From: an uncultured Gammaproteobacteria bacterium
GTDB lineage: Bacteria; Patescibacteriota; Patescibacteriia; Magasanikbacterales; UBA922
Length of the DNA stretch: 28,819 nt
Direction: 5' to 3'
Assembly: GCA_964401185.1 (NCBI GenBank)
Contig: CAYNXQ010000001.1
Coordinates: forward strand, 1 to 28,819
The notes under the pieces are model-generated. The model was not told the origin of the DNA and did not search any database. It worked only from the letters and a program-made list of their open reading frames with translations. Shown here piece after piece: positions 2,052 to 24,729 of this stretch. Position 1 is the first letter of the stretch. Each line of letters begins with the position of its first letter. The position numbers and the translations under genes are program-made.

Positions 2052-2054
2052 GTG

Positions 2055-2448
2055 TGGAGATGCCGGGAATTGAACCCGGGTCTAGAGCGGGTTGTCACAA
2101 TGCTCAACATGCGTTGCCTTTTTGGATAATCAAGAAATCAGAAAAAGGCAAAAGTTTTCTTGATGCGTCTGTGCATGACTTCGCGCGAGACTGACAGACC
2201 AAGCGCTCGCACTACGCTCGATAGTTGACACCGCAGTCCTGTTATCGAGTATTACAGGCGCGATGGTAGTTGCACTTAAGCGACTACGGGTGCGAATGAA
2301 GGAACGGCAAATGCTTTCGCAATGGCGTTCTTCACTCGACTAAGTACGTTTGCACGTAGCTTTTGCTCCGCAGTTTTACGAGGGTGTAGAGCGACCTCGA
2401 CATGCACACTGGTGACAACAAATCCGTCTATCGAATCCTGTCATCCCC
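2055..2448 (-). ncRNA. ssrA: tmRNA (one-piece, ~394 nt; CCA not encoded)
   Basis: 5' GGGGAUG pairs with 3' CAUCUCC-A including the G3.U Ala identity pair. 5' GGAUUCGA, T-arm CCGGG-UUCAAUU-CCCGG, internal tag ORF ending in UAA at 2278-2276. Directly downstream of smpB. Confidence 0.95.
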
Positions 2449-2463
2449 TTATGAAAAATGTTT

Positions 2464-2901
2464 TTACTCCTTTCGTCGCAGCTCGCGATTGAGATCTCTT
2501 TTTTTGATTGCTTCGCGTTTGTCGTAGGTTTTTTTGCCACGCACGAGCGCGATCTCAATTTTGATATGCGGCCCGTGAGTATACACCGAAACAGGCACAA
2601 TTGTCAAGCCGGCTTCGTCGCTTTTTCCCCGAAGATAGCGAACTTCTTTTTTTTTCAGAAGCAAACGGCGGCTGCGATCTGATTCGTGCGGAATTGAGAG
2701 GGCTGCCGCCTTGTATCTTGGGATATGAAGATTGATGAGATAGGGGATTTCGCCCTGAAATACTACATAACTGCCAGTCAACTTCAGATTGTTCGTACGG
2801 ATGGATTTTACTTCTGGTCCAGTCAATACCAAGCCTGCCTCGAAGGTTTCGAGGATTTCGTAATCAAAACGGACGCGCTTGTTGAGGCCATAGGTTGGCA
2901 T
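2464..2901 (-). CDS. smpB: SsrA-binding protein SmpB (145 aa)
   Basis: NKRVRFDYEILETFEAGLVLTGPEVKSIR, R.R.LLLKKKE, GLTIVP, KIEIALVRGKKTYDKRE motifs. True start is MPTYG at 2901, not the ORF-track start at 3117. Confidence 0.97.
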   Translation of the reverse strand: MPTYGLNKRVRFDYEILETFEAGLVLTGPEVKSIRTNNLKLTGSYVVFQGEIPYLINLHIPRYKAAALSIPHESDRSRRLLLKKKEVRYLRGKSDEAGLTIVPVSVYTHGPHIKIEIALVRGKKTYDKREAIKKRDLNRELRRKE

Positions 2902-2910
2902 AGTGCCCCA

Positions 2911-2961
2911 AGTATAACGCCAGCGCCCTGGTTTGGCTAGAGGCAGAAAAAAGTGTATACT
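2911..2961. promoter_or_regulatory. back-to-back divergent promoters with overlapping -35 boxes
   Basis: Minus: TAGCCA (2939-2934)-N17-TATACT (2916-2911) for smpB. Plus: TTGGCT (2933-2938)-N17-TATACT (2956-2961) for the gene at 2972. Confidence 0.55.
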
Positions 2962-2971
2962 ATTTCTTGAT

Positions 2972-3421
2972 ATGCAGTGGCATCGGCATGACAATCGTTC
3001 TTGGTTTCTCTTGCTGCCTGGGCTTCTCGGGCTTTTCATCCTGGCAGGATTATTTTTGTTTTTACTTGGCTCGCTGCGTATGCCAAGTCCAGGGACAACC
3101 CTTGGCACACTCAACAATACCCCAGCTCCTGCCGAAAGTCTTTTGACTCCGCGCAGTGTCTTTGATCAGTATCAAAATAGTTTGCAGGCCTTGGTAGCAA
3201 GCATTGCCTCGGGCGCGCTTGACAAAAATGGCATCTTTGCTAGTGTAGACACCACCATGTTCCAGGTGCGTGTACCACAGCCCCTCCTCGATGCGCATCT
3301 CAAGGCAGTACTCGCAATCCATGCGCTGGAGCAAAACCAGGCGCTCACCGACAAAGACGTCGCTACCAAAGTGACCAAGATTCTTCAATCCCTGATCACT
3401 GCCGCGACCAATCAGGGGTAA
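2972..3421 (+). CDS. hypothetical protein, single N-terminal TM anchor plus helical domain (149 aa)
   Basis: ATG at 2972 just after a promoter; hydrophobic stretch WFLLLPGLLGLFILAGLFLFLL. Confidence 0.75.
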   Translation: MQWHRHDNRSWFLLLPGLLGLFILAGLFLFLLGSLRMPSPGTTLGTLNNTPAPAESLLTPRSVFDQYQNSLQALVASIASGALDKNGIFASVDTTMFQVRVPQPLLDAHLKAVLAIHALEQNQALTDKDVATKVTKILQSLITAATNQG

Positions 3422-5303: not shown

Positions 5304-5317
5304 GGACTGTTTTGTAT

Positions 5318-5950
5318 ATGTTTATTGAACACAGTCCAATTCAAATCCTGCGGACGCACAAAAAAGCGATCCTTGGTTTTGGCGTGCTTGTCGCCCTTTT
5401 GTCTTTGGGCGTCAGCCTGCTTTTCCCTCTGGAATACCGCGCCGATGCTCAGGTGCTGGTGATTGCCAAATCCCGTTCTGGTGTTGATCCCTACACGATT
5501 GCCAAATCCGGCGAGCGCATTGGCGAAGATCTGATTCAAGTGGTGAAGACCAATGATTTCTATACCAAGGTTATGGCTGATCCCAATTTTACCGTGGATC
5601 GTACCCGCTTCGAAGCGATCGGTATGAGCGAACAAACCAAGCGCAAAAACTGGCAAAATTCCGTTTCGGCAAGTGTCGTTTATGGCACCAGTGTGCTGTC
5701 GGTTTCGGCCTATAGCCCCAATGCATCGGATGCTGCCCAGCTCTCTGGCGCGATTGTGGATACCTTGGCTGCCCATGGTTGGGAATACGTGGGTGGTGAC
5801 GTGAGCATGAAGATCGTCAACCAGCCGATTGTTACACGATGGCCAGTGCGACCAAACCTGATTGTCAATGTTTTGTCTGGCTTTGCCATCGGGGTACTCA
5901 CCTTTGGACTTTTGGTAGTCTATCGCCCCAACAAAACCCGAGTGATTTAA
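5318..5950 (+). CDS. polysaccharide co-polymerase / chain-length determinant (Wzz/CapA/YveK-like, 210 aa)
   Basis: N-terminal TM followed by P.EYRADAQVLV; C-terminal P...PVRPNLIVNVLSGFAIG TM motif. Confidence 0.8.
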   Translation: MFIEHSPIQILRTHKKAILGFGVLVALLSLGVSLLFPLEYRADAQVLVIAKSRSGVDPYTIAKSGERIGEDLIQVVKTNDFYTKVMADPNFTVDRTRFEAIGMSEQTKRKNWQNSVSASVVYGTSVLSVSAYSPNASDAAQLSGAIVDTLAAHGWEYVGGDVSMKIVNQPIVTRWPVRPNLIVNVLSGFAIGVLTFGLLVVYRPNKTRVI

Positions 5951-5968
5951 TCTCTCAAGATATCGCAG

Positions 5969-5998
5969 AAAATTAGGCTCTACACAGCCTAATTTTTT
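5969..5998 (+). terminator. intrinsic terminator after the Wzz-like gene
   Basis: AAAATTAGGCT-CTACAC-AGCCTAATTTTTT. Confidence 0.7.
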
Positions 5999-6013
5999 GT
6001 TGCATTTATCCCC

Positions 6014-6042
6014 TTGACAAAAGCTTGGTTATATGGTATAAA
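6014..6042 (+). promoter_or_regulatory. sigma70 promoter of the GC-rich block
   Basis: TTGACA (6014-6019)-N17-TATAAA (6037-6042) with TGn. Confidence 0.8.
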
Positions 6043-6160
6043 GATATGTCTTGTTCTTTAGAACGCAGGAAGGGATTTTTCGGCTGGGTATAGCCGAGAA
6101 AGTATCTTTTTGCCATACAACCAGGCAGTGCGAAAGCGCTGCCACAAACAGGAGGACAGC

Positions 6161-7672
6161 ATGACGACGGAACGGAAGTGCGTGATTTACAGGAGCTCCT
6201 CGGTGGGGCTCATCTCTACAAGCTACCGGATTCGCGGAATCGAATCCGGTTGGATCCTGATCGAGGGGGACAAAGACCTCCCCGAAGATGGGAAGAAGGT
6301 CGTGTTCCTCGTCTCCGCAGATCCGAAGGATTTGCGGATCGAGGCCACGGTTTGCTCTCTGGGGAGAGAGGATCTGGTCGCGCTGGAAGTGTCGACCAAC
6401 CTCGATCCTCGGGATTGGGCTTGGCTCGATAGCCTGTCCGAGGATCTGATCAAAATCAAGATCCAAAATCCGGTGCCAGCGATGACGCCTACCCAAGAGC
6501 CAGATGTGGAGAGGCGAACCGAACCGTCCACGAGGACGTGCGATGTGAAGACGCCGGCCGAGGCGCTGGCACAGCCGGCAGCCACACCGACGCCCGAGAT
6601 CATTGCAATTCGCAATGAGACTCTTCCTGGGTTTGACCCGGTCGAAGGCAGCAGCAAGTCGCTGCAGCCACCTGCCTGCGCAGTCAGGCCGCCGATGCCC
6701 AAGAAGACTCCACCTCCGCGGCAGCAAGCTGGACTTTTCCGTATGGCTGGTCCGAAACGAACGGACGCGCCAAATACGGATGTGATCCCAGGCCGAGAAA
6801 ATCGGCCGAAAGGAGATCGAACAATGCTGACGGGAAATAGCGGTGATCGTTCACCGCAACCGATTGTTCTGCCGATTCTCGGCGGACCGGCGGAGAACGC
6901 TCCGCCGCCCAATGTGAGTCGTGGAAACGGACCTCCCAGGGATCCGCCGAAGGGTGGATCAGGTCGGCCGCCGCCGCCCAAGCCGCCGAAGAAAAGGAGC
7001 TGGGCGTGGCTGGGCTACGTGCTCGCTGCGCTCTTGCTGATCTTCCTCGGAATCTGGGGGGTCAGTGGGATCTCCAACTGGTGGAACGCCGGCGACATCG
7101 GCGCGAAGCCGGTGAAGGTGCATCGGATCACGCTCGACCTCCACGAGGACATGAATTTGTCCTCGTCCGAGGTGGCGCGGCTCGCGCGAGAGAACGATCA
7201 GATCGTGATCTCATGCGGGATCATCCGAACCACGAGCACTGCGAGTGTCGCTCGGATTCATCCGAACGAGGTCAAGGTGATCCGTGGATCTTTGGCCGAG
7301 ACGTGTCTGCGGTCGAGCGAGCACGGTGGGTGCCAGATCAGCTGCGAGCTGCCCGCCGAGCCTCCACCGAAGCCGGTGAAGGTCGTGACGAAGCGGGGGA
7401 TCTCGAAGCCGAGGTCCGCACCGCCCAAGCCGCCGGCACCGGTCGCCAAGACCGGACCGAAGCCCGAGCCGGTGATGCCACCGGTGGGATTCATCAAGTC
7501 GGACCTCACGGAGTGGGGCGACTGCGACGGCGGACGGCTGAAAGCGCACGATCTGGCGGCATGTTGCCGCAAGGAATTCGCGGCACAACCTGTCGGAACC
7601 CTCGACGAGTACAAGGAGGCCTGGGGATCGTACAAGACCTGTATGTCCCAGGTCCACGGAGGTGGAGAATGA
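6161..7672 (+). CDS. bitopic membrane protein: ~100-aa N-terminal domain (possibly PilZ-like), Pro-rich linker, TM, Cys-containing external part (503 aa)
   Basis: GGAGG SD 5 nt before ATG 6161; TM WAWLGYVLAALLLIFLGIWGV; two Pro/Lys-rich linkers; ATGA overlap with the next gene. Confidence 0.8.
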   Translation: MTTERKCVIYRSSSVGLISTSYRIRGIESGWILIEGDKDLPEDGKKVVFLVSADPKDLRIEATVCSLGREDLVALEVSTNLDPRDWAWLDSLSEDLIKIKIQNPVPAMTPTQEPDVERRTEPSTRTCDVKTPAEALAQPAATPTPEIIAIRNETLPGFDPVEGSSKSLQPPACAVRPPMPKKTPPPRQQAGLFRMAGPKRTDAPNTDVIPGRENRPKGDRTMLTGNSGDRSPQPIVLPILGGPAENAPPPNVSRGNGPPRDPPKGGSGRPPPPKPPKKRSWAWLGYVLAALLLIFLGIWGVSGISNWWNAGDIGAKPVKVHRITLDLHEDMNLSSSEVARLARENDQIVISCGIIRTTSTASVARIHPNEVKVIRGSLAETCLRSSEHGGCQISCELPAEPPPKPVKVVTKRGISKPRSAPPKPPAPVAKTGPKPEPVMPPVGFIKSDLTEWGDCDGGRLKAHDLAACCRKEFAAQPVGTLDEYKEAWGSYKTCMSQVHGGGE

Positions 7673-8427
7673 AACGTCTTACCTTTTTCCTGTTGGTCCT
7701 GGCCATCATCGGATTCGTCCGAATGGCCCGGGCCGATGATTCTCGCGACGTGGTCGCCTGTGTCGACTTCTTCTCGAAGAAGGCCGACAGTAAGGCGCTC
7801 ACCGCGCGGGATATCAAGCCCGCGATCGGATGTCTCCAGCGTGTGAGCCGAGAGACCTATCTCGGCATGCAGCACGCGATCGACAAACTGATCGCCATCC
7901 TCGGCAATTACGCCGAGAAGGGTGATCTGTCCCGGCTGGATGACAAACTTCGGACCCTCCAAAAGGAGGTGGAGGATCTGAAACAAGAGAAGTCTGGTCC
8001 GCGGGTCGGAGTCGCAGCTGGCGGCTTGGGGGTGATGAACCTCCATGAGGGTCTGTACCTGTTCCTCGAGGGAACACTCCAACTTCATGTTGGGGATTGG
8101 CTCCTCGAGGGTGGAGGACTCATCGGCGAATCGCCGGTCATTCCTGGTGAGTACAGCTACGGCGGCACTGGCGGACTTCTGTATCACCTCAGTGGTGAGA
8201 ATCCGTCGTGGTCGCTCGGGCTGTCCGGTCTCTACGTGAACAACGTGGGGACCGATGCGCCAGGATCCGCTGCCGAGATCTGGGGAGTTGGGCCAACCCT
8301 CCGCATGGAGATTGGGAAGGTGTCCTACATGAACACGTTCCTGCTCTATGGGCCTTCTCGCGACCTGTTTCACCGCCAGTCGGCAGGATCGCTGACGACG
8401 GGCCTCAGCCTGGGACTGTTCTTTTGA
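7669..8427 (+). CDS. secreted protein: helical/coiled-coil N-domain plus predicted 8-stranded beta-barrel ending in Phe (252 aa)
   Basis: Signal peptide MKRLTFFLLVLAIIGFVRMARA, coiled coil LSRLDDKLRTLQKEVEDLKQE, eight Gly/aromatic-rich amphipathic segments, C-terminus TTGLSLGLFF. SD GGAGG. Confidence 0.8.
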   Translation: MKRLTFFLLVLAIIGFVRMARADDSRDVVACVDFFSKKADSKALTARDIKPAIGCLQRVSRETYLGMQHAIDKLIAILGNYAEKGDLSRLDDKLRTLQKEVEDLKQEKSGPRVGVAAGGLGVMNLHEGLYLFLEGTLQLHVGDWLLEGGGLIGESPVIPGEYSYGGTGGLLYHLSGENPSWSLGLSGLYVNNVGTDAPGSAAEIWGVGPTLRMEIGKVSYMNTFLLYGPSRDLFHRQSAGSLTTGLSLGLFF

Positions 8428-8432
8428 TGATT

Positions 8433-8469
8433 GCGGTACGGGGATTCAAGGATTGAATCCCCGTACCGC
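8433..8469. repeat. perfect 17-bp inverted repeat
   Basis: GCGGTACGGGGATTCAA-GGA-TTGAATCCCCGTACCGC; no immediate U-tract on either strand. Confidence 0.85.
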
Positions 8470-8635
8470 ACCTATTTTCAGTTCAGAATCCACACGAAAG
8501 AAATTTCGATTGGATGTTCTGGATTGAAATCGGTTCTTTCAATCAAACAACTGCTGCGTCCAAGGGGATGCACAACCATCTCATCCGCCTTCGTCCGACT
8601 CGGTCGAGACTACGGCGTGATGATAGGAGAAAACG

Positions 8636-9994
8636 ATGAACAAGATTCTCGTGACCGCCATGATGGCGGCGATGACTCTGTCTCTGGTCGCGTGCGACTG
8701 GGGCAAAGTCGCGGAGCCGACGGCTCCGACCGCTGACAGCGGTGTCGCGACCGATGCCGCGTCCCCCGACGCCACGGACTGTGCGGGTCAGCAAGGCTGT
8801 GCTTGCTTCGGCAACTTCAGCTGCTACTCGCCATTCACGTGCGTCGGCGGCACGTGTAAAGAGCCATGCGACGGCAATCCGGGAGATATCCACTGTGGGT
8901 GTCTCACGGCCGGAACCACGCTCTGCAACGGCGGTCTCGTCTGCACGGCCGGGTCTTGCGAAGATCCGACCACGGTGGACGCTGGCATCGACAGCGGCGT
9001 GGCGGATTCGGGCATTGCCGTCGATTCTGGAATCGTGGATTCCGGCATCGCTGATACCGGAGTGACCGATTCGGGCGTCGCGGATTCTGGAGTCGCAGAC
9101 TCTGGTGTCGACAGCGGCGTTGGCGGCGGTTGCAACCCGGGAGACATCCACTGCGGGTGTCTCACTTCTGGAGCCGTACTCTGCCATGCAGGGCTTTCCT
9201 GCTCGAATGGCAGGTGCGAGGATCCGGGCACGCTGGACGCAGGCATTGATGCTGGGGTCGCAGACTCTGGCGTTGATACTGGGGTGGCGGATTCCGGAGT
9301 CGTTGACTCCGGGTTCATCGACAGTGGGACCGCTGACTCTGGTGTGGTGGTGGACTCGGGAGTCGTCGTCGATTCGGGTGTCGTGGATGCAGGCTTTGTC
9401 GATACCGGGGTCGTGGACTCTGGTGCCGACAGCGGCGTTGACGGCGGCTCGAACTGTCACGGCAACCTGGGAGACATCCACTGCGGGTGTCTCACATCTG
9501 GAGTCGTGCTCTGCAACGGCGGTCTCGTCTGCACGGCCGGGTCTTGCGAAGATCCGACCACGGATGCTGGCGTCGTCGTCGATTCGGGTGTCGTGGATGC
9601 AGGCTTCGTTGATACCGGGGTCGTGGACTCTGGGATCGGCACGGCGTGCAACGTCCAGAACGGACAGCGGATTCCTGGAGACGAAGGGTTCTTCTGCTTC
9701 CAGGGGAATCGCTACGAGTGCGATGACTCGTGGGGAGAGACGTCCGGTGGACAGCCGGGTAGCCGAATCGGGTCCAACCCGCGTCCGGATGGGAAATGTG
9801 ACGCGTACGACTACGACGGAGATTGCTACTGCGCAAGCGGTAGCTGCGTCGGGTCGAGCAACCCAGCCTGTACAGTTCTTCATGATGGAGACTGTGACGA
9901 GAGTTCGGCGGGCAACCACCCGGGTGCCCCCGACTGGCCGGGAGACAACTACGACAACGGGTGCATGTCCACCAGCACCAGCCAGTTCACTTAG
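8636..9994 (+). CDS. Cys-rich lipoprotein with repeated 6-Cys modules and D-[SAT]-G spacer repeats (452 aa)
   Basis: Lipobox LSLVA|C, SD AGGAG, three GDIHCGCLT..G..LC..GL.C..G.CEDP modules plus a related first module, 30 D-[SAT]-G tripeptides. Confidence 0.88.
   Translation: MNKILVTAMMAAMTLSLVACDWGKVAEPTAPTADSGVATDAASPDATDCAGQQGCACFGNFSCYSPFTCVGGTCKEPCDGNPGDIHCGCLTAGTTLCNGGLVCTAGSCEDPTTVDAGIDSGVADSGIAVDSGIVDSGIADTGVTDSGVADSGVADSGVDSGVGGGCNPGDIHCGCLTSGAVLCHAGLSCSNGRCEDPGTLDAGIDAGVADSGVDTGVADSGVVDSGFIDSGTADSGVVVDSGVVVDSGVVDAGFVDTGVVDSGADSGVDGGSNCHGNLGDIHCGCLTSGVVLCNGGLVCTAGSCEDPTTDAGVVVDSGVVDAGFVDTGVVDSGIGTACNVQNGQRIPGDEGFFCFQGNRYECDDSWGETSGGQPGSRIGSNPRPDGKCDAYDYDGDCYCASGSCVGSSNPACTVLHDGDCDESSAGNHPGAPDWPGDNYDNGCMSTSTSQFT
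8920..9633 (+). repeat. intragenic direct repeats in the lipoprotein gene
   Basis: 56-nt identical copies at 8920-8975 and 9508-9563; 62-nt copies with 2 synonymous differences at 9362-9423 and 9572-9633. Confidence 0.9.
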
Positions 9995-10244
9995 ACCGCA
10001 CCCACCTCGGTGCACGCGGTCGTCCCGACTCAGTCGGGATAAAGCACCAGCCCAGTATCACTTTTTTCAAAAGTGGTTCTGGGCATCTCATTCAGCTAAG
10101 AATTTCTTGTCTTGCCAAAGCCTTGGCGACGGCAGATTCTTGGTTGATAGGATAAAAAAGTTCTTTCAAATCGTTCTCGCATCCGAGGCCTCTGGTCTCA
10201 TGGAAAGGCACAATGGTGTGCCCAATAGATGCACAGGAGGAAAT

Positions 10245-11042
10245 GTGCACAACAACAAGTGGGTGGCGACCATCGCCAACCTGGCCATGAGGTTTTTCAT
10301 GGCAGTCTTCCCCATCGTCGCAGGCCTGGTGGCTTGCGGCGGCGGGCTCGAGGCTGTGGGCTCCGTCAACGGAGCGTGCTACGGCAACGGCACCTGCGAC
10401 ATGGGTCTGGTCTGCGCGCCGACGACCAGAATCTGCGTCGCGACCGATGGCGGGACCGGCAACGGTCCTGACAGCGGCGCGCCGATCGTCTGTGACAACC
10501 AGCACGCCGGTGCTGGTTGCCCCTGCTATGGCAACGGCTCGTGCGACATGGGAGCCGCGTGCAACGCGACGACCAAGAAGTGCGAGACGCCGGACAGCGG
10601 CGTGGTGGTCACCGACAGTGGCACCACGATCGTCGACACCGACGCCGGAGTGGCGAGCACCGACGGTGGTGTCACGACCTATGCCGACGCATCCAGCCCG
10701 ACCCCGGTGCCGAATTCGTGCACCAATGCGATGGGTGGCGCCGGGTTCAAGAATGTGAACTCGGGATCGCTCGACCTCCTGGTCGGGAAGACCTGGCTCG
10801 GCGGGTCCAACGAGACCGACTACTGGGGCTTCGGCTCCGGTCAGTCGATCGTCGACTGCGGCGCGACCGGCTTCTACATGCGGTCGGAGGGCTGGAACGC
10901 CTGGATCGCCAGGAGTCAGTCGGACCGCATCTCGTGGTGCCAGGCCAACATCTCTTGTCGTGATCGCGATGGTGTGTGGTACACGCCGCAGCATCTGACG
11001 GGGGATGGCCTCAACTGCGAATGCAGCTGGGATCGTCAGTAG
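10245..11042 (+). CDS. second Cys-rich lipoprotein (about 265 aa; alternative start ATG 10287)
   Basis: AGGAGG SD before GTG 10245; lipobox GLVA|C; two CYGNG(T/S)CDMG..C modules; DSG/DAG linker; Trp/Cys-rich C-domain. Confidence 0.82.
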   Translation: MHNNKWVATIANLAMRFFMAVFPIVAGLVACGGGLEAVGSVNGACYGNGTCDMGLVCAPTTRICVATDGGTGNGPDSGAPIVCDNQHAGAGCPCYGNGSCDMGAACNATTKKCETPDSGVVVTDSGTTIVDTDAGVASTDGGVTTYADASSPTPVPNSCTNAMGGAGFKNVNSGSLDLLVGKTWLGGSNETDYWGFGSGQSIVDCGATGFYMRSEGWNAWIARSQSDRISWCQANISCRDRDGVWYTPQHLTGDGLNCECSWDRQ

Positions 11043-11051
11043 TCAATTCAT

Positions 11052-11088
11052 GACCCTTCAAAGCGAAAGCTTTGGAGGGTCTCTTTTT
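11052..11088 (+). terminator. intrinsic terminator closing the GC-rich block
   Basis: GACCCTTCAAAGC-GAAA-GCTTTGGAGGGTC followed by TCTTTTT. Confidence 0.8.
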
Positions 11089-12470
11089 ATTTGCGTGAGC
11101 GCGGCCCCCCAATACGCCCAGGTGAACCAAATCACTGGCGTATGATGAAGCATGTTGTCGGAAGCGCTCATAATCACAAAGATGATGACCCAGGAAAAAA
11201 GATACAGTGATTGCGGCGCTCGCCAACTTTTTTTCTTTTGTGGATGATAAAATGTTTTTGCCAGTTGCCAAAACAAGACCAGATATGCCAAAAGTCCGAA
11301 GACGCCAGTTTCTTCTGCCAGTCGCAAATAATCATCGTGCGATTCGGCGCTGTCATCCCACTGATGATCGGTACTGCGATTGGCTTCCCAGACGATCGGG
11401 AAGGTGCCATAACCATATCCCTGGATCGGTCGAGCGCGAATGATCGGAATATTTTCCTGCACCAGCGACCAGCGCCAGGCCAGCGAATCGGCATCTTCGT
11501 TGCGGGTGGTCAATCGTCCAATGAGTGGGATATCGCTCAAACTTACGTTGGCCGTAGCAATCAAGAAATTGTTGAAGGGGCCCAAAATCAGGTAGCCAGC
11601 GATTCCAGTGATAGCCAGGATGTAGAGCAGGCGACGATACTTCCAGATACCAAGAAAAATCAGGAATACGCCAAGGCCAATAAAGGCTGCCCGCGTGTAG
11701 GTGAGCGCCAGCAGTACGAGCAATGTTCCTGACAGCCAGTCTTTGGCCTGCGGATACCTTTTCCAAAAAGCAATTGGTTGGAGATAGGCGATCTCGGCAT
11801 GGATCAAGATGAGCGAGAGAACAAAAAAAGCAAAAACATTGGGATGAGCAAAGGTGCCATAGATGCGGCCGTTGATGCCAAAGGTGGAGAGTCCCTGAGC
11901 AAAGAAAATCTGCTTTACGCCCGCAAGCAGTGGAATCACAGCTGAGGCAAAAATAACCGCCGTGAGTTCGAGCAGAGTAAACTTTTTTTCCTGGACAAAA
12001 ATATACGACAAGAAAAAGAGCGCCTCGAGATTGGCAAATTTGATCAGTTCGATCGCGGTAGTGGTGGCCGAGACACTGCCAAACACACTCATGAGGAAGA
12101 TAAATGTGGTGGCCGGAAAAATATACCGCAGCGGGATGGTCTTCAGTTTGTGACGGTAGACAGACAACCAGATCAGACTCCAGACAAGTAGAGCGATTGC
12201 CATCACCGCGTTGCCATTGACACTCAAGTTCTGATAGGTAAAGATGATGGTGTCGCGGAAGTAATCCAGTGTTGGTCGCACCAAGAGGAAGACCAAGAGC
12301 AGTCGTTCCTGAAGCAAGATGTGCCCTACAATCAGCATGGCCACCGATAATATGATCGCATCCACACTGCTCCAGGGACTGGCGACGATGCCGATGGTTG
12401 CGAGGATCAGTGTCCAGGCAATCACCTGATATTGCGCTTGGGTGAGTTTGATTCGGATTGCGTTTTTCAT
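11058..12470 (-). CDS. O-antigen ligase/polymerase family (Wzy_C) membrane protein (470 aa)
   Basis: Multi-TM; RIYGTFAHPNVFA, LTYTRAAFIG, RPIQGYGYGTF, SHDDYLRLAEETGVFGL motifs. Confidence 0.88.
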   Translation of the reverse strand: MKNAIRIKLTQAQYQVIAWTLILATIGIVASPWSSVDAIILSVAMLIVGHILLQERLLLVFLLVRPTLDYFRDTIIFTYQNLSVNGNAVMAIALLVWSLIWLSVYRHKLKTIPLRYIFPATTFIFLMSVFGSVSATTTAIELIKFANLEALFFLSYIFVQEKKFTLLELTAVIFASAVIPLLAGVKQIFFAQGLSTFGINGRIYGTFAHPNVFAFFVLSLILIHAEIAYLQPIAFWKRYPQAKDWLSGTLLVLLALTYTRAAFIGLGVFLIFLGIWKYRRLLYILAITGIAGYLILGPFNNFLIATANVSLSDIPLIGRLTTRNEDADSLAWRWSLVQENIPIIRARPIQGYGYGTFPIVWEANRSTDHQWDDSAESHDDYLRLAEETGVFGLLAYLVLFWQLAKTFYHPQKKKSWRAPQSLYLFSWVIIFVIMSASDNMLHHTPVIWFTWAYWGAALTQIKRDPPKLSL

Positions 12471-15642: not shown

Positions 15643-15670
15643 TGTAACATTTTGGCTAGATCCACGTCTA
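15643..15670 (+). promoter_or_regulatory. ECF-type promoter directly before the ECF sigma start codon
   Basis: TGTAAC (15643-15648)-N16-CGTCTA (15665-15670), resembling Bacillus SigW/SigX/SigM-type TG(A/T)AAC-N16-CGT/CGA promoters. Confidence 0.65.
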
Positions 15671-15675
15671 TTTAT

Positions 15676-16227
15676 ATGAAGAACTTGGTAAGAGAAAAAT
15701 TGCTCCTCTACAAAGTTCGAGTCGACAAAGACGCGGATGCTTTTGCAGAGTTGTACGACTTGTATGTGGAGCCAGTCTACCGGTTCGTTTTTTTCAAAAT
15801 TTCACACAAAGAAGAAGCCGAGGATTTGGTCAGCGATGTCTTCTTGCGCTCCTGGCAGTATTTGGTAGATGCCAACAAAGAAGATGTTCGAAACTTTAGC
15901 AGTCTGGTATATACGATTGCTCGGCGTCGGATTGTCGATGTATATCGGGATCGTTCCAAGCGCCAAGAGTCGTCTATTGATAGCGTTGGAGAGATAGTAG
16001 ATCAAGATACTGGCCACGACATCATGATCCAATCCGAAGATGCCAAACGGTTGCTTGGCCTGGTACATTCTCTCAAACAGGAATATCAGGAAGCCATTTT
16101 GCTCCGCTATGTGGAAGGATTTCCTTTGAGTGAGGTGGCGGCGATCATGGGCAAAAGTCCAACCAGTATCCGAGTGACCATTCATCGCGCGATAAAAAAA
16201 TTGAAAAGCCTATCCCAAATGTCATGA
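15676..16227 (+). CDS. RNA polymerase ECF sigma factor (183 aa)
   Basis: DAFAELYDLY...VYRFVF, EEAEDLVSDVFLRSW, LVYTIARRRIVD; region 4 L..EYQEAILLRY.EGFPLSEVA.IMGKS...IRV.IHRA.KKL. Confidence 0.95.
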   Translation: MKNLVREKLLLYKVRVDKDADAFAELYDLYVEPVYRFVFFKISHKEEAEDLVSDVFLRSWQYLVDANKEDVRNFSSLVYTIARRRIVDVYRDRSKRQESSIDSVGEIVDQDTGHDIMIQSEDAKRLLGLVHSLKQEYQEAILLRYVEGFPLSEVAAIMGKSPTSIRVTIHRAIKKLKSLSQMS

Positions 16228-17534
16228 ACCGGAACACGATTGAACAATTGAAGACGCTGCGACACGAACACGGCCAGATCAACCCTGACCGTGATTGGGT
16301 TTTGCGCAATCGTGAGACTTTGCTTCATCAAATTCAAAATACAGTTGAAACCAATGGACGGAAGCTGTGGAATGTTGATTATGTTTCCAATGCATTGGGG
16401 CAAATAACTTCTCTTTTTCTTCCAACCCAGATTGTCGCTATGGGACGATCGGCTGCCATCCTTATTCTTGTTTTTTCTATGGCAATTGGCGGGTGGATTA
16501 CTTCGGCTTCTGCAGCGAGCAGTCTTCCGGGAGAACCGCTCTATCACGTGAAGATGGCCAAGGAACAAACCGAACTTTTGGTGGTATCGGTGGTGGGCAC
16601 AGAAACAGACAAAGTGAATACACTGCTCCAGCATGCTTCCAACCGTGTAGAGGAATATCAAAAATCCAAATCACCTGCACAGGCAACTCAGGCCATTCAA
16701 TCGCTCAAAGAATCCATTCAATCGACCAAAGACAGTCTTACCAATATTTCCACATCCGATCCAGCCGCTACCGGCCTTGCCCAGACAGTCAATGATAAAA
16801 CAGATCAATTGCTTCAGTCGCTTAGCGCAACTTCTACAGCTTCAACCAATACCTCCACGACCGGAATCTTGGTAGGTACCGATCACACTGATGCGGTAGC
16901 TCTGCAAAAGGAAGTTGGAGAAGCAGCACACCTTATCGCCGTCACAGGGGTGAAGGCGGCCGAAGTTTTGGTTCAGAAAAATTTGGATGGCGATCAGAGT
17001 ATTGATTTGAATGAAGTCAAGGCGAATGTGGAGAAAAAACTGGATACTATAGTGACAGATTTTTCGCAGATAAATAAAGATGCCGCTGTGGTTGCCTCGA
17101 GTACTTCGCCCAATTCCGGCGCTACTACCACAATTCCATTTTCATTGATTCCAGTCGTGCCAGCCAGTCTAGTCTCAACGACAGTCGTATCAACCACTAT
17201 TAATGCGAATGCTTCATCGACAATTACTGTAGCTCAAGCCATCAAGGTGACAGAACAGACAGTAGGAGATGCGAACAAAATTGTCCAAAAAACAGTTGCT
17301 GAAGCCAAGACGATGATCGGTAACAATGATTTGCTGGGAGCTCTGCAGAAAGTTCAGGAATTGGCTACGGTAAAAAAGGATACGGCTACAGTGGTAATTG
17401 ATGCCCAGGCCGTGGCCGATACGATTTCACAATCAGCAATTCAGGCAACTACCAGTTCCAGTGGCACTGGGATTGCGCCAGTGAATGGAGTAAGTACAAC
17501 CACGACAACCAAACCACTCGGCGGATTGAAATAA
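16224..17534 (+). CDS. putative anti-sigma factor: short N-terminal helix, TM, DUF5667-like domain, Ser/Thr-rich tail (436 aa)
   Basis: ATGA-coupled to the ECF sigma; SLPGEPLYHVKMAKE motif after the TM; low-complexity S/T tracts. Confidence 0.72.
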   Translation: MNRNTIEQLKTLRHEHGQINPDRDWVLRNRETLLHQIQNTVETNGRKLWNVDYVSNALGQITSLFLPTQIVAMGRSAAILILVFSMAIGGWITSASAASSLPGEPLYHVKMAKEQTELLVVSVVGTETDKVNTLLQHASNRVEEYQKSKSPAQATQAIQSLKESIQSTKDSLTNISTSDPAATGLAQTVNDKTDQLLQSLSATSTASTNTSTTGILVGTDHTDAVALQKEVGEAAHLIAVTGVKAAEVLVQKNLDGDQSIDLNEVKANVEKKLDTIVTDFSQINKDAAVVASSTSPNSGATTTIPFSLIPVVPASLVSTTVVSTTINANASSTITVAQAIKVTEQTVGDANKIVQKTVAEAKTMIGNNDLLGALQKVQELATVKKDTATVVIDAQAVADTISQSAIQATTSSSGTGIAPVNGVSTTTTTKPLGGLK

Positions 17535-17859: not shown

Positions 17860-20800
17860 ATGAATAATGCATTACAAATCGGGAAGAAAGCTCTGACCTG
17901 GTCTGTCGTGATCCTCACTATTCTCTGGAGCATGGGCATTGCCGCCTTGGCGCCATTGGCTGCCAAAGCCGCGACCTGTCCAACACTTCAGGCTGGTGAC
18001 CTGTTCAAGGTCCCAGGAAATAGCGCAGTGTATCTCCTCAACGCCAACATGCAGCGCTTGTATTTCCCACACGCGAATATCTATCACTCATGGTACACGG
18101 ATTATTCTGGCGTTCAGGAAATCCCAACATCATGTGTGGACGCATATCCAGCACCAAGCGCACCTCCATTTGGGGTGAACTATCGTCCTGGATCGATGCT
18201 TGTGAAAGTACAAATCTCACCAAGTGTATACGTGGTTGAACCAGGCAATACTCTTGCCAAGATCACCAGCGAATCAGTCGCTTCAGCCCTTTACGGAAGT
18301 AACTGGGCAGGTCAAGTAGCTGACGTTGCTGATGTGTTCTGGCCAAACTACGCCAATCGAGCTGCCGATATTACTGACGCCGTACCACCAAATGGTATGT
18401 TGCTCAAAGTATCAGGTGGTTCTGTCTATTATGTGAGTGGTGGTATGAAACATTTGGTTGATGGCAGTGTTGCCGCTTCCGCTGTTCATATCGTCTCACA
18501 GGCAGTCCTCAATGCAGTTGGAACTGCATCGGACTCGGTCACCGCTGCCAGTATTTGGAGCAATCCATCACAGGGTATGGGTGGTTCCACGAGTGTTCCA
18601 GGTCCAATCGTTGGACAAGGTGGCTCACTCTCGGTCTCACTCGCTGCAGATACTCCAGACGGGACGACCTACGCAGTTGCCAATGCTGCTCGTGTTCCAT
18701 TCACGAAAGTGAATTTCACGAACAACAGTGGTCATGACATTGTCATTGATTCCATGAGAATCATTCGCGACGGTTCACCCGCCAAGAATGCCGACTTCAA
18801 CACGATCAATGCAATTGATGCCAATGGCAACTTGCTCAACGACACAGGCAAGACATTGAACTCCGACAACTACGCGACCTTTACTGAAGATGTCACTATC
18901 CCAGCAAATTCAACCAAAGCGTTGACATTTGTTGGCGACATCGCCAGTTCCGTTGGTAACGGCGACGTTCCAACCATCGACTTGACTATGGTTACTCCAG
19001 CTGACCCAACCGTCACTGTGAGTGGTCTGCCAGTCCATGGCAATCGCGTGACCATGAACAACAACGTCGCTCTTGGTACAGTTACACTGGCCGAGGGTAC
19101 GGTGATTGGATCAGTCACAAAAGAAGTTGGCGCGACCAATGTTGATTTGGCAAGTCTGAAGATTTCGGTTGCTACGAATGACTTCCAAGTAAGTCGTATT
19201 GTGCTCTACAACTCAAGTACTGCCGCCGATGGCGATGTGCAGAACTTCCAGTTGAAGTACAACAACAATCTGATTGTCAAAGGAACCATGAAGAACAAAT
19301 ATCTCACCTTTGATTTGTCAGCTTGCGGATCGGATTGTATGATCCAGAAGGGAAACAACAAAACCTTCGGGGTTACCGGTGATATTATCGGCGGCTCTGG
19401 TCGCTCGATCAAGCTCACTGTGCTCAAGGCCGTCCATGTGTTGGTATGGGACAAGTTGAACAACTACTATGTCACTCCAACCAACAATGCCACTGCCATG
19501 AACAATCAGGTGACGATCTCGACCGGGAAATTGGCGGTCTCCAAGACCAACGATATCCCATCGAGCAATGTCCCAACCAATTCCAGCAATGTTGCGCTCG
19601 GTACCTTTGACTTCCGCGTCACTGGTGAACCAGTCGAAATTCGTACCTTGGTCTTCAAGGTAACGACTACTGGTACTCTCGTGCCAACCGGAATTGATTC
19701 CATTGTGCTCTACGATGCCAATGGCAAGGCGCTCAACGGCGGCGTGGATGCCGTCGGCGCAGCCAGTCCAGGATATGCCACCACAACCGACAGTTTTGTA
19801 CTGCCAGTCGGTGACAATATCCTCACAGTCAAAGCCAAGATCGACAACACACCAGTCAATGGTGATACTGTCTCGATCGGCATTGATATGAGCAACACCT
19901 CGAACTTCGATGCTCGTGGTAGCTCAACAGGGGATGTCGTAACGCTTGGTACATACGCAACGCCAAATTCGGTGGTTTCGGGTAACACCATGACCATCAA
20001 TACAGCGGCTCTGCGCATGACCACGCTCTCGACTCCAGCCTCGACCACCTACGCTGGTGGTACCAATGATATTATCTGTGAAAAGGTGCTCCTTGATGCC
20101 AACGGTTCATCCGAAGACCTCAAAGTGACACAATTCCAGATGATCGATACGCCATACAGTGGCGCCAAGACTCAAGACTTGCAGAATATTCGTCTGTTTG
20201 TCGACAAGGATGGCGACAGCTACAATGGTGTCGGATCTGACACAGCCCTCTCCAATGTTCAAAGTGGTTCAACTGCGACTGTCAATACAGCCGAGACAAT
20301 CACGTGGAACTTGAGTGGTTCTGATCAGTTCATCATCAAAGCAGGCAAGAAAGTGGTGGTTACAGTGAAATGTAACTTGACCGGCGGCGCATCTGTTGGT
20401 ACACATCGTCTCCACAGTGATGGATCAAGCAACGTGACGTTGACTGGTATCATAAGTGGCAGTTCGGTGGTCCCAGTGGTTGACGCAGCCCAGGGACAAG
20501 GTGTCTCGGTCGGCACAGCTGGCGGTACGGTCCAGGTATCGATTGATGCCTCGAGTCCAACTGCTTCACAGTTGTACCCAGGCGGCTCACAGGGTGTGAC
20601 GCTCGCTGCTTTCAACTTCTATGCCACAACGACAGAAGATGTTGAAGTGCAGACGATCAACTTCACCCAGCGTGTCACCGACACCAATAGTGCTGCGTTC
20701 CAGGATTACGATTTGCTCTACCTCGTTGACCAGAATGGCAATGTGGTCGGATCAGTCGTGCCAACCAGTACCAAGCCAACGATCACGATGAATACGAAAG

Positions 20801-21639
20801 CATTTATCGTCAATCGTACGACCAGTAATGGTCAGATCTTGTATCTCAAGGCGAACCTTACCAACATCAACCCACAAGGCGTTGTCACTGTTGGCGGTCA
20901 TTCTCTTGGGTTCAACATCGGATCGACTTCTGCCATCGTTGCCAAGGGCAACCAGACTGGCAGTAGTTCTGTTGTCTACTTTGGCAGCAGCGTTCCAAAT
21001 GGCTTGACGCACTACATGTTCAAGGGCACACCAACCGTGACAGTCCTGCCAGTCTCTGGCAAGCTGACCAACGGTTTGGTTGACCTGTTCTCGTTCCAGG
21101 TCGCGGCCAATATGTCCGATATCGATGTCTATAAGTTTAGCTTCGATTTGACGACATCCACAGCCAAGATCAACGCTCTTGAATTGGATGACATCACAGA
21201 CGCGACACAGGTGACGCTCTACACCAGTAGTACAATCAACTGCAATAGCGGCCTGGCAACAGGATACTGCTATATCCGCGTGTTGTTTGATACATCTGGA
21301 AATCAGACCTTCCCACAAACGGGTGGTCAGGCGCGCACGGTCTCGGTGTCCAAACCACGCATCTACGTCTTGCGCGGTACGATTACTGGCAGTGCTTCCG
21401 GTGCTTCAGTATCCACTCGCCTTGCGGGTGATGCGGCAGTTCCGTTGGCCTCCACAATCAAGATTACAAGTTCGCCAATGGCTTCATCGACGGTCATCGA
21501 CACAGATCCAAACAACGACTTTATCTGGTCAGATCGCTCAGCTGGAGCACACGCGACAACGACAAACGACTGGACCAATGGTTACGGAGTTGCAGGGTTG
21601 AACTCTGCTTCGAGTACGCCAGCGGCAGTGTCGCAGTAA
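17860..21639 (+). CDS. large secreted S-layer-like surface protein with six ~150-170-aa beta-rich modules (1259 aa)
   Basis: N-terminal signal/TM; GDLFK...SAVY...R.YFP...Y.SWY.D N-domain; T/S/N/G/V-rich repeats; terminator downstream. Confidence 0.85.
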   Translation: MNNALQIGKKALTWSVVILTILWSMGIAALAPLAAKAATCPTLQAGDLFKVPGNSAVYLLNANMQRLYFPHANIYHSWYTDYSGVQEIPTSCVDAYPAPSAPPFGVNYRPGSMLVKVQISPSVYVVEPGNTLAKITSESVASALYGSNWAGQVADVADVFWPNYANRAADITDAVPPNGMLLKVSGGSVYYVSGGMKHLVDGSVAASAVHIVSQAVLNAVGTASDSVTAASIWSNPSQGMGGSTSVPGPIVGQGGSLSVSLAADTPDGTTYAVANAARVPFTKVNFTNNSGHDIVIDSMRIIRDGSPAKNADFNTINAIDANGNLLNDTGKTLNSDNYATFTEDVTIPANSTKALTFVGDIASSVGNGDVPTIDLTMVTPADPTVTVSGLPVHGNRVTMNNNVALGTVTLAEGTVIGSVTKEVGATNVDLASLKISVATNDFQVSRIVLYNSSTAADGDVQNFQLKYNNNLIVKGTMKNKYLTFDLSACGSDCMIQKGNNKTFGVTGDIIGGSGRSIKLTVLKAVHVLVWDKLNNYYVTPTNNATAMNNQVTISTGKLAVSKTNDIPSSNVPTNSSNVALGTFDFRVTGEPVEIRTLVFKVTTTGTLVPTGIDSIVLYDANGKALNGGVDAVGAASPGYATTTDSFVLPVGDNILTVKAKIDNTPVNGDTVSIGIDMSNTSNFDARGSSTGDVVTLGTYATPNSVVSGNTMTINTAALRMTTLSTPASTTYAGGTNDIICEKVLLDANGSSEDLKVTQFQMIDTPYSGAKTQDLQNIRLFVDKDGDSYNGVGSDTALSNVQSGSTATVNTAETITWNLSGSDQFIIKAGKKVVVTVKCNLTGGASVGTHRLHSDGSSNVTLTGIISGSSVVPVVDAAQGQGVSVGTAGGTVQVSIDASSPTASQLYPGGSQGVTLAAFNFYATTTEDVEVQTINFTQRVTDTNSAAFQDYDLLYLVDQNGNVVGSVVPTSTKPTITMNTKAFIVNRTTSNGQILYLKANLTNINPQGVVTVGGHSLGFNIGSTSAIVAKGNQTGSSSVVYFGSSVPNGLTHYMFKGTPTVTVLPVSGKLTNGLVDLFSFQVAANMSDIDVYKFSFDLTTSTAKINALELDDITDATQVTLYTSSTINCNSGLATGYCYIRVLFDTSGNQTFPQTGGQARTVSVSKPRIYVLRGTITGSASGASVSTRLAGDAAVPLASTIKITSSPMASSTVIDTDPNNDFIWSDRSAGAHATTTNDWTNGYGVAGLNSASSTPAAVSQ

Positions 21640-24686: not shown

Positions 24687-24729
24687 ACGTTCTGGTATCC
24701 TTGGGGATATTATCTTTCCTTTGTTTTCT

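Follow-up and report, generated by a model that had tools for sequence, protein, structure and literature searches.

A GC-rich gene cassette next to wzy in Candidatus Magasanikbacteria is probably an inherited, fast-evolving surface module

The DNA analysed here is a stretch of 28,819 nucleotides (positions 1–28,819, hereafter the window) from a genome of Candidatus Magasanikbacteria, a lineage of the candidate phyla radiation (CPR). Four co-oriented genes, which we call A to D, form a block at 6161–11042 whose GC content is well above that of its surroundings. We propose that this block probably represents, in this genome, an ancient surface cassette that is inherited vertically, evolves very fast and is located 3′ of wzy in a surface-polysaccharide locus. 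The cassette would be carried by Candidatus Magasanikbacteria and several allied CPR families beside a conserved wzy gene. Its high GC content, which is not a mark of recent foreign origin, would be a long-maintained property of its coding sequences that combines an amino-acid bias with a preference for codons ending in C or G.

The source genome (G000) is a metagenome-assembled genome of 892,569 bp in 138 contigs, with 98.9% completeness, 3.35% estimated contamination and a GC content of 49.9% (standard deviation of 2.4 points across 2-kb segments). Per 500 nt, the GC content is 0.58–0.66 at 6501–11000 versus 0.40–0.54 elsewhere in the window, and the boundaries of the block are sharp, with a rise from roughly 0.48–0.53 next to it. 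At the 2-kb scale it is the sole long block above 0.57 in the genome; at finer scale, GC-rich DNA adds up to 15 kb, 4.9 kb of which is this block. Genes A to D have GC contents of 0.59–0.65, and their GC contents at third codon positions (GC3) are 0.72, 0.71, 0.70 and 0.85, respectively, compared with 0.43–0.59 for the flanking genes and a genome mean of 0.537 (standard deviation 0.066). All their two-fold codon families are inverted relative to the genome, as illustrated by AAC (72% vs 29%), GAG (76% vs 34%) and TTC (81% vs 34%). The GC excess splits into +5.4 points for amino-acid composition, which is rich in Gly, Asp, Cys and Pro, and +6.7 points for codon choice. The internal spacers, namely the leaders of C (208 nt, GC 0.48) and D (250 nt, GC 0.50), have genome-like GC contents. 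An earlier note on this DNA, made from the sequence and its open reading frames, had described four co-oriented genes richer in GC than their flanks in a CPR-like genome, and had called for an analysis of codon usage; the description holds, and codon usage does set the four genes apart.

The block is real and correctly assembled. Logan contigs from four groundwater metagenome runs, all belonging to the same study, contain its sequence. A 1032-nt contig of run X1 spans the right junction (10383–11414), and a 526-nt contig of run X2 spans the left one (5668–6193), reaching 33 bases into gene A; both are identical to the window, as is a contig of run X4 covering 6096–6254. Sequencing depth is low (3–5x) and alike within and outside the block. 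Because identical contigs from different samples bridge both junctions at even depth, the block is not an assembly artefact, which answers the earlier concern about the regions near 6000 and 11050.

The evidence that carries our proposal comes from related genomes. We searched for wzy orthologues in 151 genomes of the order, and a separate scan of species-representative genomes gave 48 wzy loci. Orthologues are present in 35 of the 151 genomes and in 21 further genomes of the class. All 20 loci that were fetched harbour a GC-rich block of 3–9 kb, with 60–73% GC against backgrounds of 27–47%, directly 3′ of wzy. In the independent set, 33 loci extend at least 3 kb past wzy; such a block is found in 31 of them, and it starts 0–2.7 kb from that gene. 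Outside the order, a GC-elevated block follows wzy in families f30 (5/5), f102, f40, f20, f109 and f45, and the wzy orthologues of families f35, f82, f65, f96 and f53 are devoid of one. Since the same kind of cassette adjoins the same wzy in most relatives and in other families, a recent one-off transfer is not supported; the comparison with related CPR genomes that the earlier note had suggested thus argues against a one-off event.

The composition of these blocks is linked to that of their genomes. Over 36 loci, some of them from related genomes that are not independent points, the block exceeds its background by 20.4 ± 3.6 GC points and tracks it with a slope of 0.62 (r 0.73). It has a GC content of 0.46 in 25%-GC genomes and of 0.65–0.68 in 45–54%-GC genomes. 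When genes only are considered (30 loci), the cassette coding sequences have a GC content of 0.65 and a GC3 of 0.83, with 0.46 for the internal spacers and 0.405 for the background.

Gene order recurs as well. A bitopic membrane or coiled-coil protein is followed by a low-Cys signal-peptide protein, often ending with Phe or Trp, then by one to four lipobox proteins and the convergent wzy. The lipobox proteins of the relatives contain 5–14% Cys, the largest having 2363 residues with 326 Cys, and they include Dicty_CTDC (E 1.4e-66), MopE-motif (E 1.4e-12) and TSP_3 modules. At an E-value of 1e-6, sequence comparison leaves 84 of the 140 cassette proteins as singletons.

Pairs of close relatives indicate how this diversity arose. 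In the pair of loci L087/L094, the flanking genes have synonymous divergences (dS) of 0.40–0.88 and ratios of non-synonymous to synonymous divergence (dN/dS) of 0.01–0.15. The cassette genes of this pair are orthologous, with dS of 0.19–0.67, dN/dS of 0.09–0.36 and GC3 of 0.68–0.88 in both members. Similarly, for L116/L117 the values are 0.25–1.0 (dS) and 0.02–0.14 (dN/dS) in the flanks, and 0.31–0.66 and 0.25–0.37 in the cassette. In the pair L097/L099, the flanks are 77–87% identical with dS >1, and the cassette proteins are 29% identical, with dN/dS of 0.64–0.72 and GC3 of 0.79–0.84. The dN/dS values of cassettes are thus 2–10 times those of flanks in close pairs. The presence of orthologues with flank-like dS in close pairs argues for vertical descent of the cassette, and in-place divergence with high dN/dS explains why similarity is lost at genus distance. 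A fixed position combined with faster-diverging content (dN/dS of 0.09–0.72 vs 0.01–0.15) is what characterizes a hypervariable surface locus.

The GC bias has persisted although silent sites have turned over. Across an order-level radiation, GC3 stays 30–50 points above that of the genome while silent sites change at the genomic rate. As synonymous turnover at that rate leaves GC3 high, a directional force appears to bear on silent positions within one gene class, most likely selection at the synonymous level. On our proposal, composition-based methods would wrongly call the block foreign, and it is a clear counter-example to the amelioration model. Other candidate causes were set aside. Expression-linked codon bias does not fit the GC3 of EF-Tu (0.57) and ribosomal proteins (0.42–0.62), and that of EF-G is ordinary too. 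GC-biased gene conversion as the sole cause is disfavoured by cassette spacers only 5.7 points above background with a GC3 of ~0.83 in the genes. Amino-acid composition alone accounts for about half of the GC excess.

Small GC-rich genes (GC3 0.80–0.85) are also found elsewhere in the source genome. The one at 3083–3580 of contig C55 codes for a lipoprotein of 165 aa whose Cys module resembles those of C and D. Another, on the minus strand of contig C2 (23886–24413), codes for a signal-peptide protein and lies ~300 nt from a DsbA-like gene (C2:24737–25213). That of contig C61 (3363–4247) is preceded by a GTTCTTTACA motif (C61:3299). The existence of other small GC-rich genes for exported proteins suggests that the codon regime is a property of a gene class rather than of one site. 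The only other 2-kb segment above 0.57 is of another kind: located at a contig end (C39:6500–8306, GC 0.61–0.65), it contains a gene (L109:1576–2931, minus strand) for a 451-aa Glu/Lys/Arg-rich protein without a signal peptide, unlike the cassette genes. A 430-aa gene with a GC3 of 0.72 (C8:9148–10437) is isocitrate lyase-like, as judged from its sequence alone.

The block lies between two genes of a polysaccharide locus. On its left, the Wzz-domain gene (5312–5950, plus strand; PF02706, E 1.3e-6), which is chain-length determinant-like, has a native GC content and a GC3 of 0.55. It is a conserved landmark, with orthologues 40–51% identical past the cassette in relatives. On its right, the Wzy_C gene (11058–12470, minus strand; PF04932, E 1.2e-16), coding for an O-antigen polymerase/ligase-like protein, is also of native GC content, and both flanks are therefore as the earlier note had named them. 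Shine-Dalgarno sequences are found 4–7 nt ahead of all four starts, AGGAGG for A and D, GGAGG for B and AGGAG for C, again as previously described. A sigma-70-like promoter can be read ahead of A (TTGACA-17 nt-TATAAA, 6014–6042, plus strand), which an automatic promoter scan misses because the second hexamer ends in A. A sequence scan predicted a hairpin terminator common to D and the convergent wzy (11052–11081), and an intrinsic terminator with an 18-bp stem after B (8432–8470, plus strand). The note's single unit running from an upstream promoter to a final terminator is thus right as to its two ends. However, because a terminator also follows B, the block comprises at least two, and probably three, transcription units.

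A motif is shared by the cassette leaders. GTTCTTT is found at 6053–6059, 11 nt downstream of the -10 hexamer, and again at 8533–8542 and 10160–10169, all on the plus strand. The longer form GTTCTTT(A/C)(A/C)A sits in the leaders 73–376 nt upstream of the start codons and is conserved across the order; the source genome has 18 copies of it versus ~7 estimated by chance. An extended version, GTTCTTTACAA, occurs within spacers upstream of cassette genes in 12–14 of 30 related loci (motif-bearing loci are L063, L080, L088, L097, L099, L100, L102–L104 and L108). The attC core of integrons is GTTRRRY. We dropped an integron reading of the spacer motif, as GTTCTTT is unlike that core and the window contains no integrase.

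Beyond wzy, the window codes for an extracytoplasmic function (ECF) sigma factor (15652–16227; PF08281, PF04542) followed by a DUF5667 protein, a probable anti-sigma factor (15652–17534). This pair is syntenic in relatives of family f1 and is a candidate regulator of the cassette. The native GC content of the spacers, the shared motif and the syntenic sigma pair speak for a native framework, not for repeated import. The sigma/anti-sigma pair is followed by a gene for a 1259-aa protein without any family (17860–21639) and, at 22482–26763, by two tandem, slightly overlapping genes, each coding for a Wzy_C domain with C-terminal tetratricopeptide repeats (734 and 741 aa). On the other side of the block, a transfer-messenger RNA (tmRNA) gene (RF00023, 108.7 bits, 2052–2448) adjoins smpB (PF01668, E 6e-48) in a region of the minus strand (2052–3117).

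Gene A (6161–7672, plus strand; GC 0.62) encodes a 503-aa protein that comprises an N-terminal domain of ~100 residues, a Pro/Lys-rich linker, a single transmembrane segment near residues 280–305 and a Cys-containing outer part; it is the membrane protein that the earlier note had listed among the products. It belongs to no Pfam, NCBIfam or PHROG family. In relatives, the first gene of the cassette codes for a bitopic membrane or coiled-coil protein, a counterpart by position. A PilZ reading of its N-terminus was rejected: PF07238 did not match residues 1–110 even at E 10, and only neighbours at 0.80 in the language-model Atlas pointed that way.

Gene B (7669–8427, plus strand, 252 aa) overlaps A by an ATGA. 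Its product has a Sec signal, with a hydrophobic region after Lys-Arg and an ARA-DD cleavage site, and its C-terminus, GLSLGLFF, is beta-signal-like with an aromatic last residue (Phe). Residues 26–109 form a helical stalk in AlphaFold2 models from the single sequence (predicted local confidence, pLDDT, 62–81). Without an alignment, the full-length model has a pLDDT of 46.7, the barrel part below 50 being unusable. With 16 B-like C-terminal domains aligned, residues 100–252 yield eight long antiparallel strands (pLDDT 73.8, predicted TM-score 0.67). Foldseek searches of solved structures with this model retrieved NspA, the N-domain of OprF, OmpA, Ail, OmpX and PagP (TM-scores of 0.50–0.57, probability 1.0). 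Those of AlphaFold DB clusters retrieved OMP_b-brl 'outer membrane protein beta-barrel', DUF3575 and opacity proteins (TM-scores up to 0.72), and language-model neighbours in outer-membrane-protein clusters at 0.90–0.91 provide a lead only. The C-terminal domain of B is thus predicted to be an OmpA/OmpX/NspA-like 8-stranded barrel of outer-membrane type, in agreement with the beta-barrel-like protein that the note had proposed.

By sequence, B is an orphan. It matches no Pfam, NCBIfam or PHROG family, the OMP_b-brl profile PF13505 included, a profile of B-like domains found no match among Protein Data Bank sequences, and B was not found by sequence in 60 relatives. A word-indexed search of 5.8e9 proteins returned only B itself. 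An exhaustive phmmer search of 1.84e9 representatives added four giant proteins that match the Gly-rich stretch 160–222, matches that we read as compositional. The counterparts of B in relatives have only sub-threshold scores for PF13505 (E 0.031 and 3.5e-4) and Porin_4 (E 0.008), and those of family f30 (~615 aa) have sub-threshold OMP_b-brl, Porin_4 and LysM scores. Among 104 cassette proteins with 150 residues or more, 17 (from 16 of 34 loci) end with Phe or Trp and have tails that resemble beta-signals; in the crude proteome of the source genome, 42 of 786 proteins end with one of these two residues.

Genes C (8636–9994, plus strand, 452 aa) and D (10245–11042, plus strand, 265 aa, GTG start) code for the two lipobox proteins with Cys modules and D-[SA]-G repeats that the earlier note had recognized. 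C has the lipobox SLVAC (Cys20), three modules of ~6 Cys between arrays of D-S/A/T-G repeats and a Cys-rich C-terminal part. It contains internal repeats of 144 nt (three copies) and 72 nt (four copies). Contigs from runs X2 and X3 lack a 210-bp unit (9361–9572) that corresponds to one 70-aa module, and run X1 has it in duplicate, so that repeat number is either variable in the population or ambiguous in the assembly. D has the lipobox GLVAC (Cys31 counted from the GTG start), two small Cys modules, D-S/A-G repeats and a C-terminal domain of ~100 residues ending with C-E-C. Five cassettes have this domain in their wzy-proximal lipoprotein, and a search within the order found it in 6 of 201 genomes, in both cassette-carrying families.

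Neither protein belongs to a Pfam, NCBIfam or PHROG family. C has a MopE motif (PF11617) at 419–443 that remains below threshold (19 bits vs a cut-off of 27) and is matched by neither the NCBIfam myxococcal repeat nor PF00526; D has no PF11617 or PF00526 match. Among the same 5.8e9 proteins, the word-indexed search found for C only 17 partial matches, weak and repeat-driven, and for D none. No paralogues of the cassette genes were found in the source genome. That genome codes for Lgt (PF01790, E 3.9e-41, contig C77), LspA (PF01252, E 2.1e-23, contig C30), three DsbA-like proteins, DsbB and VKOR, so that C and D could be lipidated and oxidized by the cell itself. Lipobox proteins are therefore no diderm trait, as Lgt and LspA are both encoded by this CPR genome. 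In contrast, Omp85/BamA (PF01103) was not found in the source genome or in 121 genomes of the order, with a search that gave matches in seven diderm control genomes. To our knowledge, CPR lineages are generally described as lacking an outer membrane. Of the genes that the note had proposed to look for, lgt and lspA are therefore present, and bamA was not detected.

We suggest that A is a bitopic membrane protein, that B is a stalk and barrel exported by the Sec system and that C and D are disulfide-rich lipoproteins, all of which would be matured by the cell's own Sec, Lgt/LspA and DsbA/DsbB/VKOR proteins. These products may form a surface assembly for contact with a partner cell, or one that varies under pressure from the partner or from phages. 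Within a conserved surface locus, the cassette evolves faster than any other part, which makes it a candidate determinant of partner specificity in an uncultured lineage. Among these bacteria without detected Omp85, 16 of 34 cassettes include a putative barrel of outer-membrane type that carries a beta-signal, a recurrence that bears on the nature of the CPR envelope and on the docking of episymbionts.

Several points weigh against this proposal. The role that we consider most likely, that of a native and rapidly diversifying surface complex for cell contact, is deduced from the types of protein and their setting in the locus. For A and B, even a genome of the same genus yields no match by sequence, and their presumed orthology to cassette genes elsewhere is based on position and type. 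The alignment behind the barrel model contains sequences of only 13–25% identity, and with the TM-scores to solved structures it gives moderate confidence. The barrel would need insertion, and no Omp85/BAM was found. Some exchange of cassette parts between strains is likely, as indicated by variant contigs and by the patchy D domain (6/201). Thus, contigs of runs X3 and X4 that are 95–99% alike match the window from 8400 and 10436 onward, with 255 nt of unlike GC-rich sequence before. By sequence, these are strain variants in which the 3′ part of B or the upstream part of D differs and is joined to an unchanged downstream sequence. An exact-pattern scan of Joint Genome Institute (JGI) metagenome contigs with the post-B spacer gave no match. 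The contigs that diverge before 8400 and 10436 may point to alternative gene sets exchanged between strains, but close genome pairs have orthologues.

Finally, a GC-rich mobile pool exists in the lineage. The complete genome of one relative (G060; 963 kb, 44.8% GC) has 27 GC-rich blocks that represent 9.5% of its length. Two of its regions (C1:1–9700 and C1:128600–187700; L134, L140–L143) comprise ~65 kb of DNA of 59–65% GC. This DNA carries repeated serine-recombinase-like genes, type I restriction-modification-like genes, AAA ATPases and kinases, and it looks like mobile elements that are GC-richer than their host. This is the opposite of the usual trend.

Among the other explanations, the boldest is that CPR lineages without a beta-barrel assembly machinery (BAM) keep an envelope module in which a barrel is inserted without BAM and a regime of C/G-ending codons is maintained. 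We regard it as rather unlikely. The barrel of B would enter the outer membrane of a diderm partner as a docking device, or would belong to an unrecognized outer layer of CPR bacteria, and the Cys-rich lipoproteins would be the variable recognition part. GC3 values of 0.7–0.99 in genomes with 0.3–0.5 would be kept actively as a functional feature, for instance through codon- or tRNA-dependent control of expression or mRNA stability. If true, this explanation would imply an intragenomic codon dialect of a kind not described in bacteria.

Continual replacement is a second alternative, which appears improbable. The site would be a hotspot that swaps coding segments from a GC-rich mobile or partner-derived, possibly host, pool and keeps its native spacers. 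Consistent with it, the GC content of cassette coding sequences depends only weakly on the background when genes only are considered (slope 0.14), and GC3 reaches 0.95–0.99 in some relatives. Cassettes have hardly any similarity with one another, the D domain is patchy, and the strain variants share a spacer and differ upstream of 8400 and 10436. The lipoproteins of relatives use the Myxococcota-type modules described above (Dicty_CTDC, TSP_3 and MopE), the serine recombinases and restriction-modification genes of G060 lie on GC-rich elements, and Patescibacteria have been reported to contain many genomic islands (PMC12455944). However, orthologues in close pairs keep their GC3 and have the same dS as the flanks, and the GC content of the whole block follows that of the genome at a constant offset, down to 0.46 in 25%-GC genomes. 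Moreover, none of the organisms sampled yielded a homologue of B, C or D, neither a recombinase nor a repeat lies at the site, and the high dN/dS by itself accounts for the lost similarity.

A single recent transfer from a GC-rich diderm, Myxococcota-like host, close to the host-derived origin put forward in the earlier note, is very unlikely. The inverted codon usage, the sharp composition boundaries, the diderm-type barrel of B and the proximity of A and D to Myxococcota proteins in the language model (PilZ and Dicty_CTDC clusters, 0.79–0.80) are in its favour, and by its atypical composition the block does resemble a genomic island. However, scores below 0.9 in the Atlas are mere leads, as a third of shuffled sequences also attain 0.8, and this weak neighbourhood would be explained by a shared GC-rich amino-acid composition. 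B, C and D have no convincing homologue among 5.8e9 or 1.84e9 proteins (A was not searched there), A to D match no phage family (PHROGs), and the taxonomic placement of the proteins that the note had called for thus points to no donor.

A recent island would be absent from the same site in relatives; here 31 of 33 have the block, dS in close pairs equals that of the flanks, and other families have the block too, so that synteny largely refutes the transfer. The internal spacers have native GC content and carry the motif of the lineage. In agreement with the note, domain searches found no integrase or transposase in the window and no flanking direct repeats or target duplication were found; no tRNA gene lies near the block, that of the tmRNA being the only RNA gene in the window. 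The Myxococcota flavour is real as a style, given the Cys modules, the Asp-rich D-[SA]-G repeats and the module families of relatives, and it fails as evidence of ancestry. Among PF11617, PF00526 and the NCBIfam myxococcal repeat, matches above threshold are found in cassettes of relatives and not in C and D. Vertical inheritance without Myxococcota affinity, the outcome that the note itself had listed as contrary to its proposal, is largely what synteny, dS and the homology searches indicate. As for a chimeric assembly or a binning contamination in which a CPR contig was fused with DNA from some GC-rich organism, the fragmented and slightly contaminated assembly and its low depth would allow it, but mismatch-free contigs from two samples across both junctions, the even depth and the same architecture in dozens of other assemblies, single-contig genomes included, make it hardly conceivable.

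We found no description of this GC-rich cassette phenomenon in the literature that was searched, and to that extent the earlier note's suggestion of an undescribed system stands. Its parts nevertheless resemble known systems. B is most similar to the small 8-stranded outer-membrane barrels (the OmpA N-domain, OmpX, Ail, NspA and PagP; PF13505), which are its best structural matches, with its Sec signal, eight predicted amphipathic strands and beta-signal-like C-terminus. It differs from them by the lack of a profile match, its orphan sequence, the helical stalk that precedes the barrel and its occurrence in a lineage without detectable Omp85/BamA.

C and D are reminiscent of the large Cys-rich extracellular proteins of the CPR group Peribacteria, for which attachment to other cells was proposed and which have weak similarity to Cys-rich repeats of Myxococcus (Anantharaman et al. 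2016, PMC4736985). In both cases the proteins are exported, Cys-rich, encoded by CPR bacteria and variable between strains. The Peribacteria genomes differ in having a uniform GC content of 58.5%, and no compositional contrast, wzy position, barrel partner or cassette was reported for them.

In aquifer Patescibacteria, genomic islands have been reported to make up as much as 13% of the length of a genome (Gios et al. 2025, PMC12455944), and the composition-based detection of such islands would flag the present block. The text of that study mentions neither lipoproteins, cysteine-rich proteins and the cell envelope nor Magasanikbacteria. The block differs from such islands by the absence of mobility genes, its conservation in place and type and its flank-like dS.

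Finally, flexible islands and glycan loci, such as O-antigen or capsule loci and the cell-wall island of Haloquadratum (PMC4535781), provide the closest parallel in terms of layout. They share with the cassette a fixed position in an envelope locus between conserved flanks, a content that diverges far faster than these flanks and a deviant composition. In contrast with those islands, close relatives hold orthologues of the cassette genes, and the high-GC deviation is confined to coding sequences and extends over the order. Because close relatives hold orthologues, the divergence of the cassette appears to result mainly from in-place protein evolution rather than from gene swapping.

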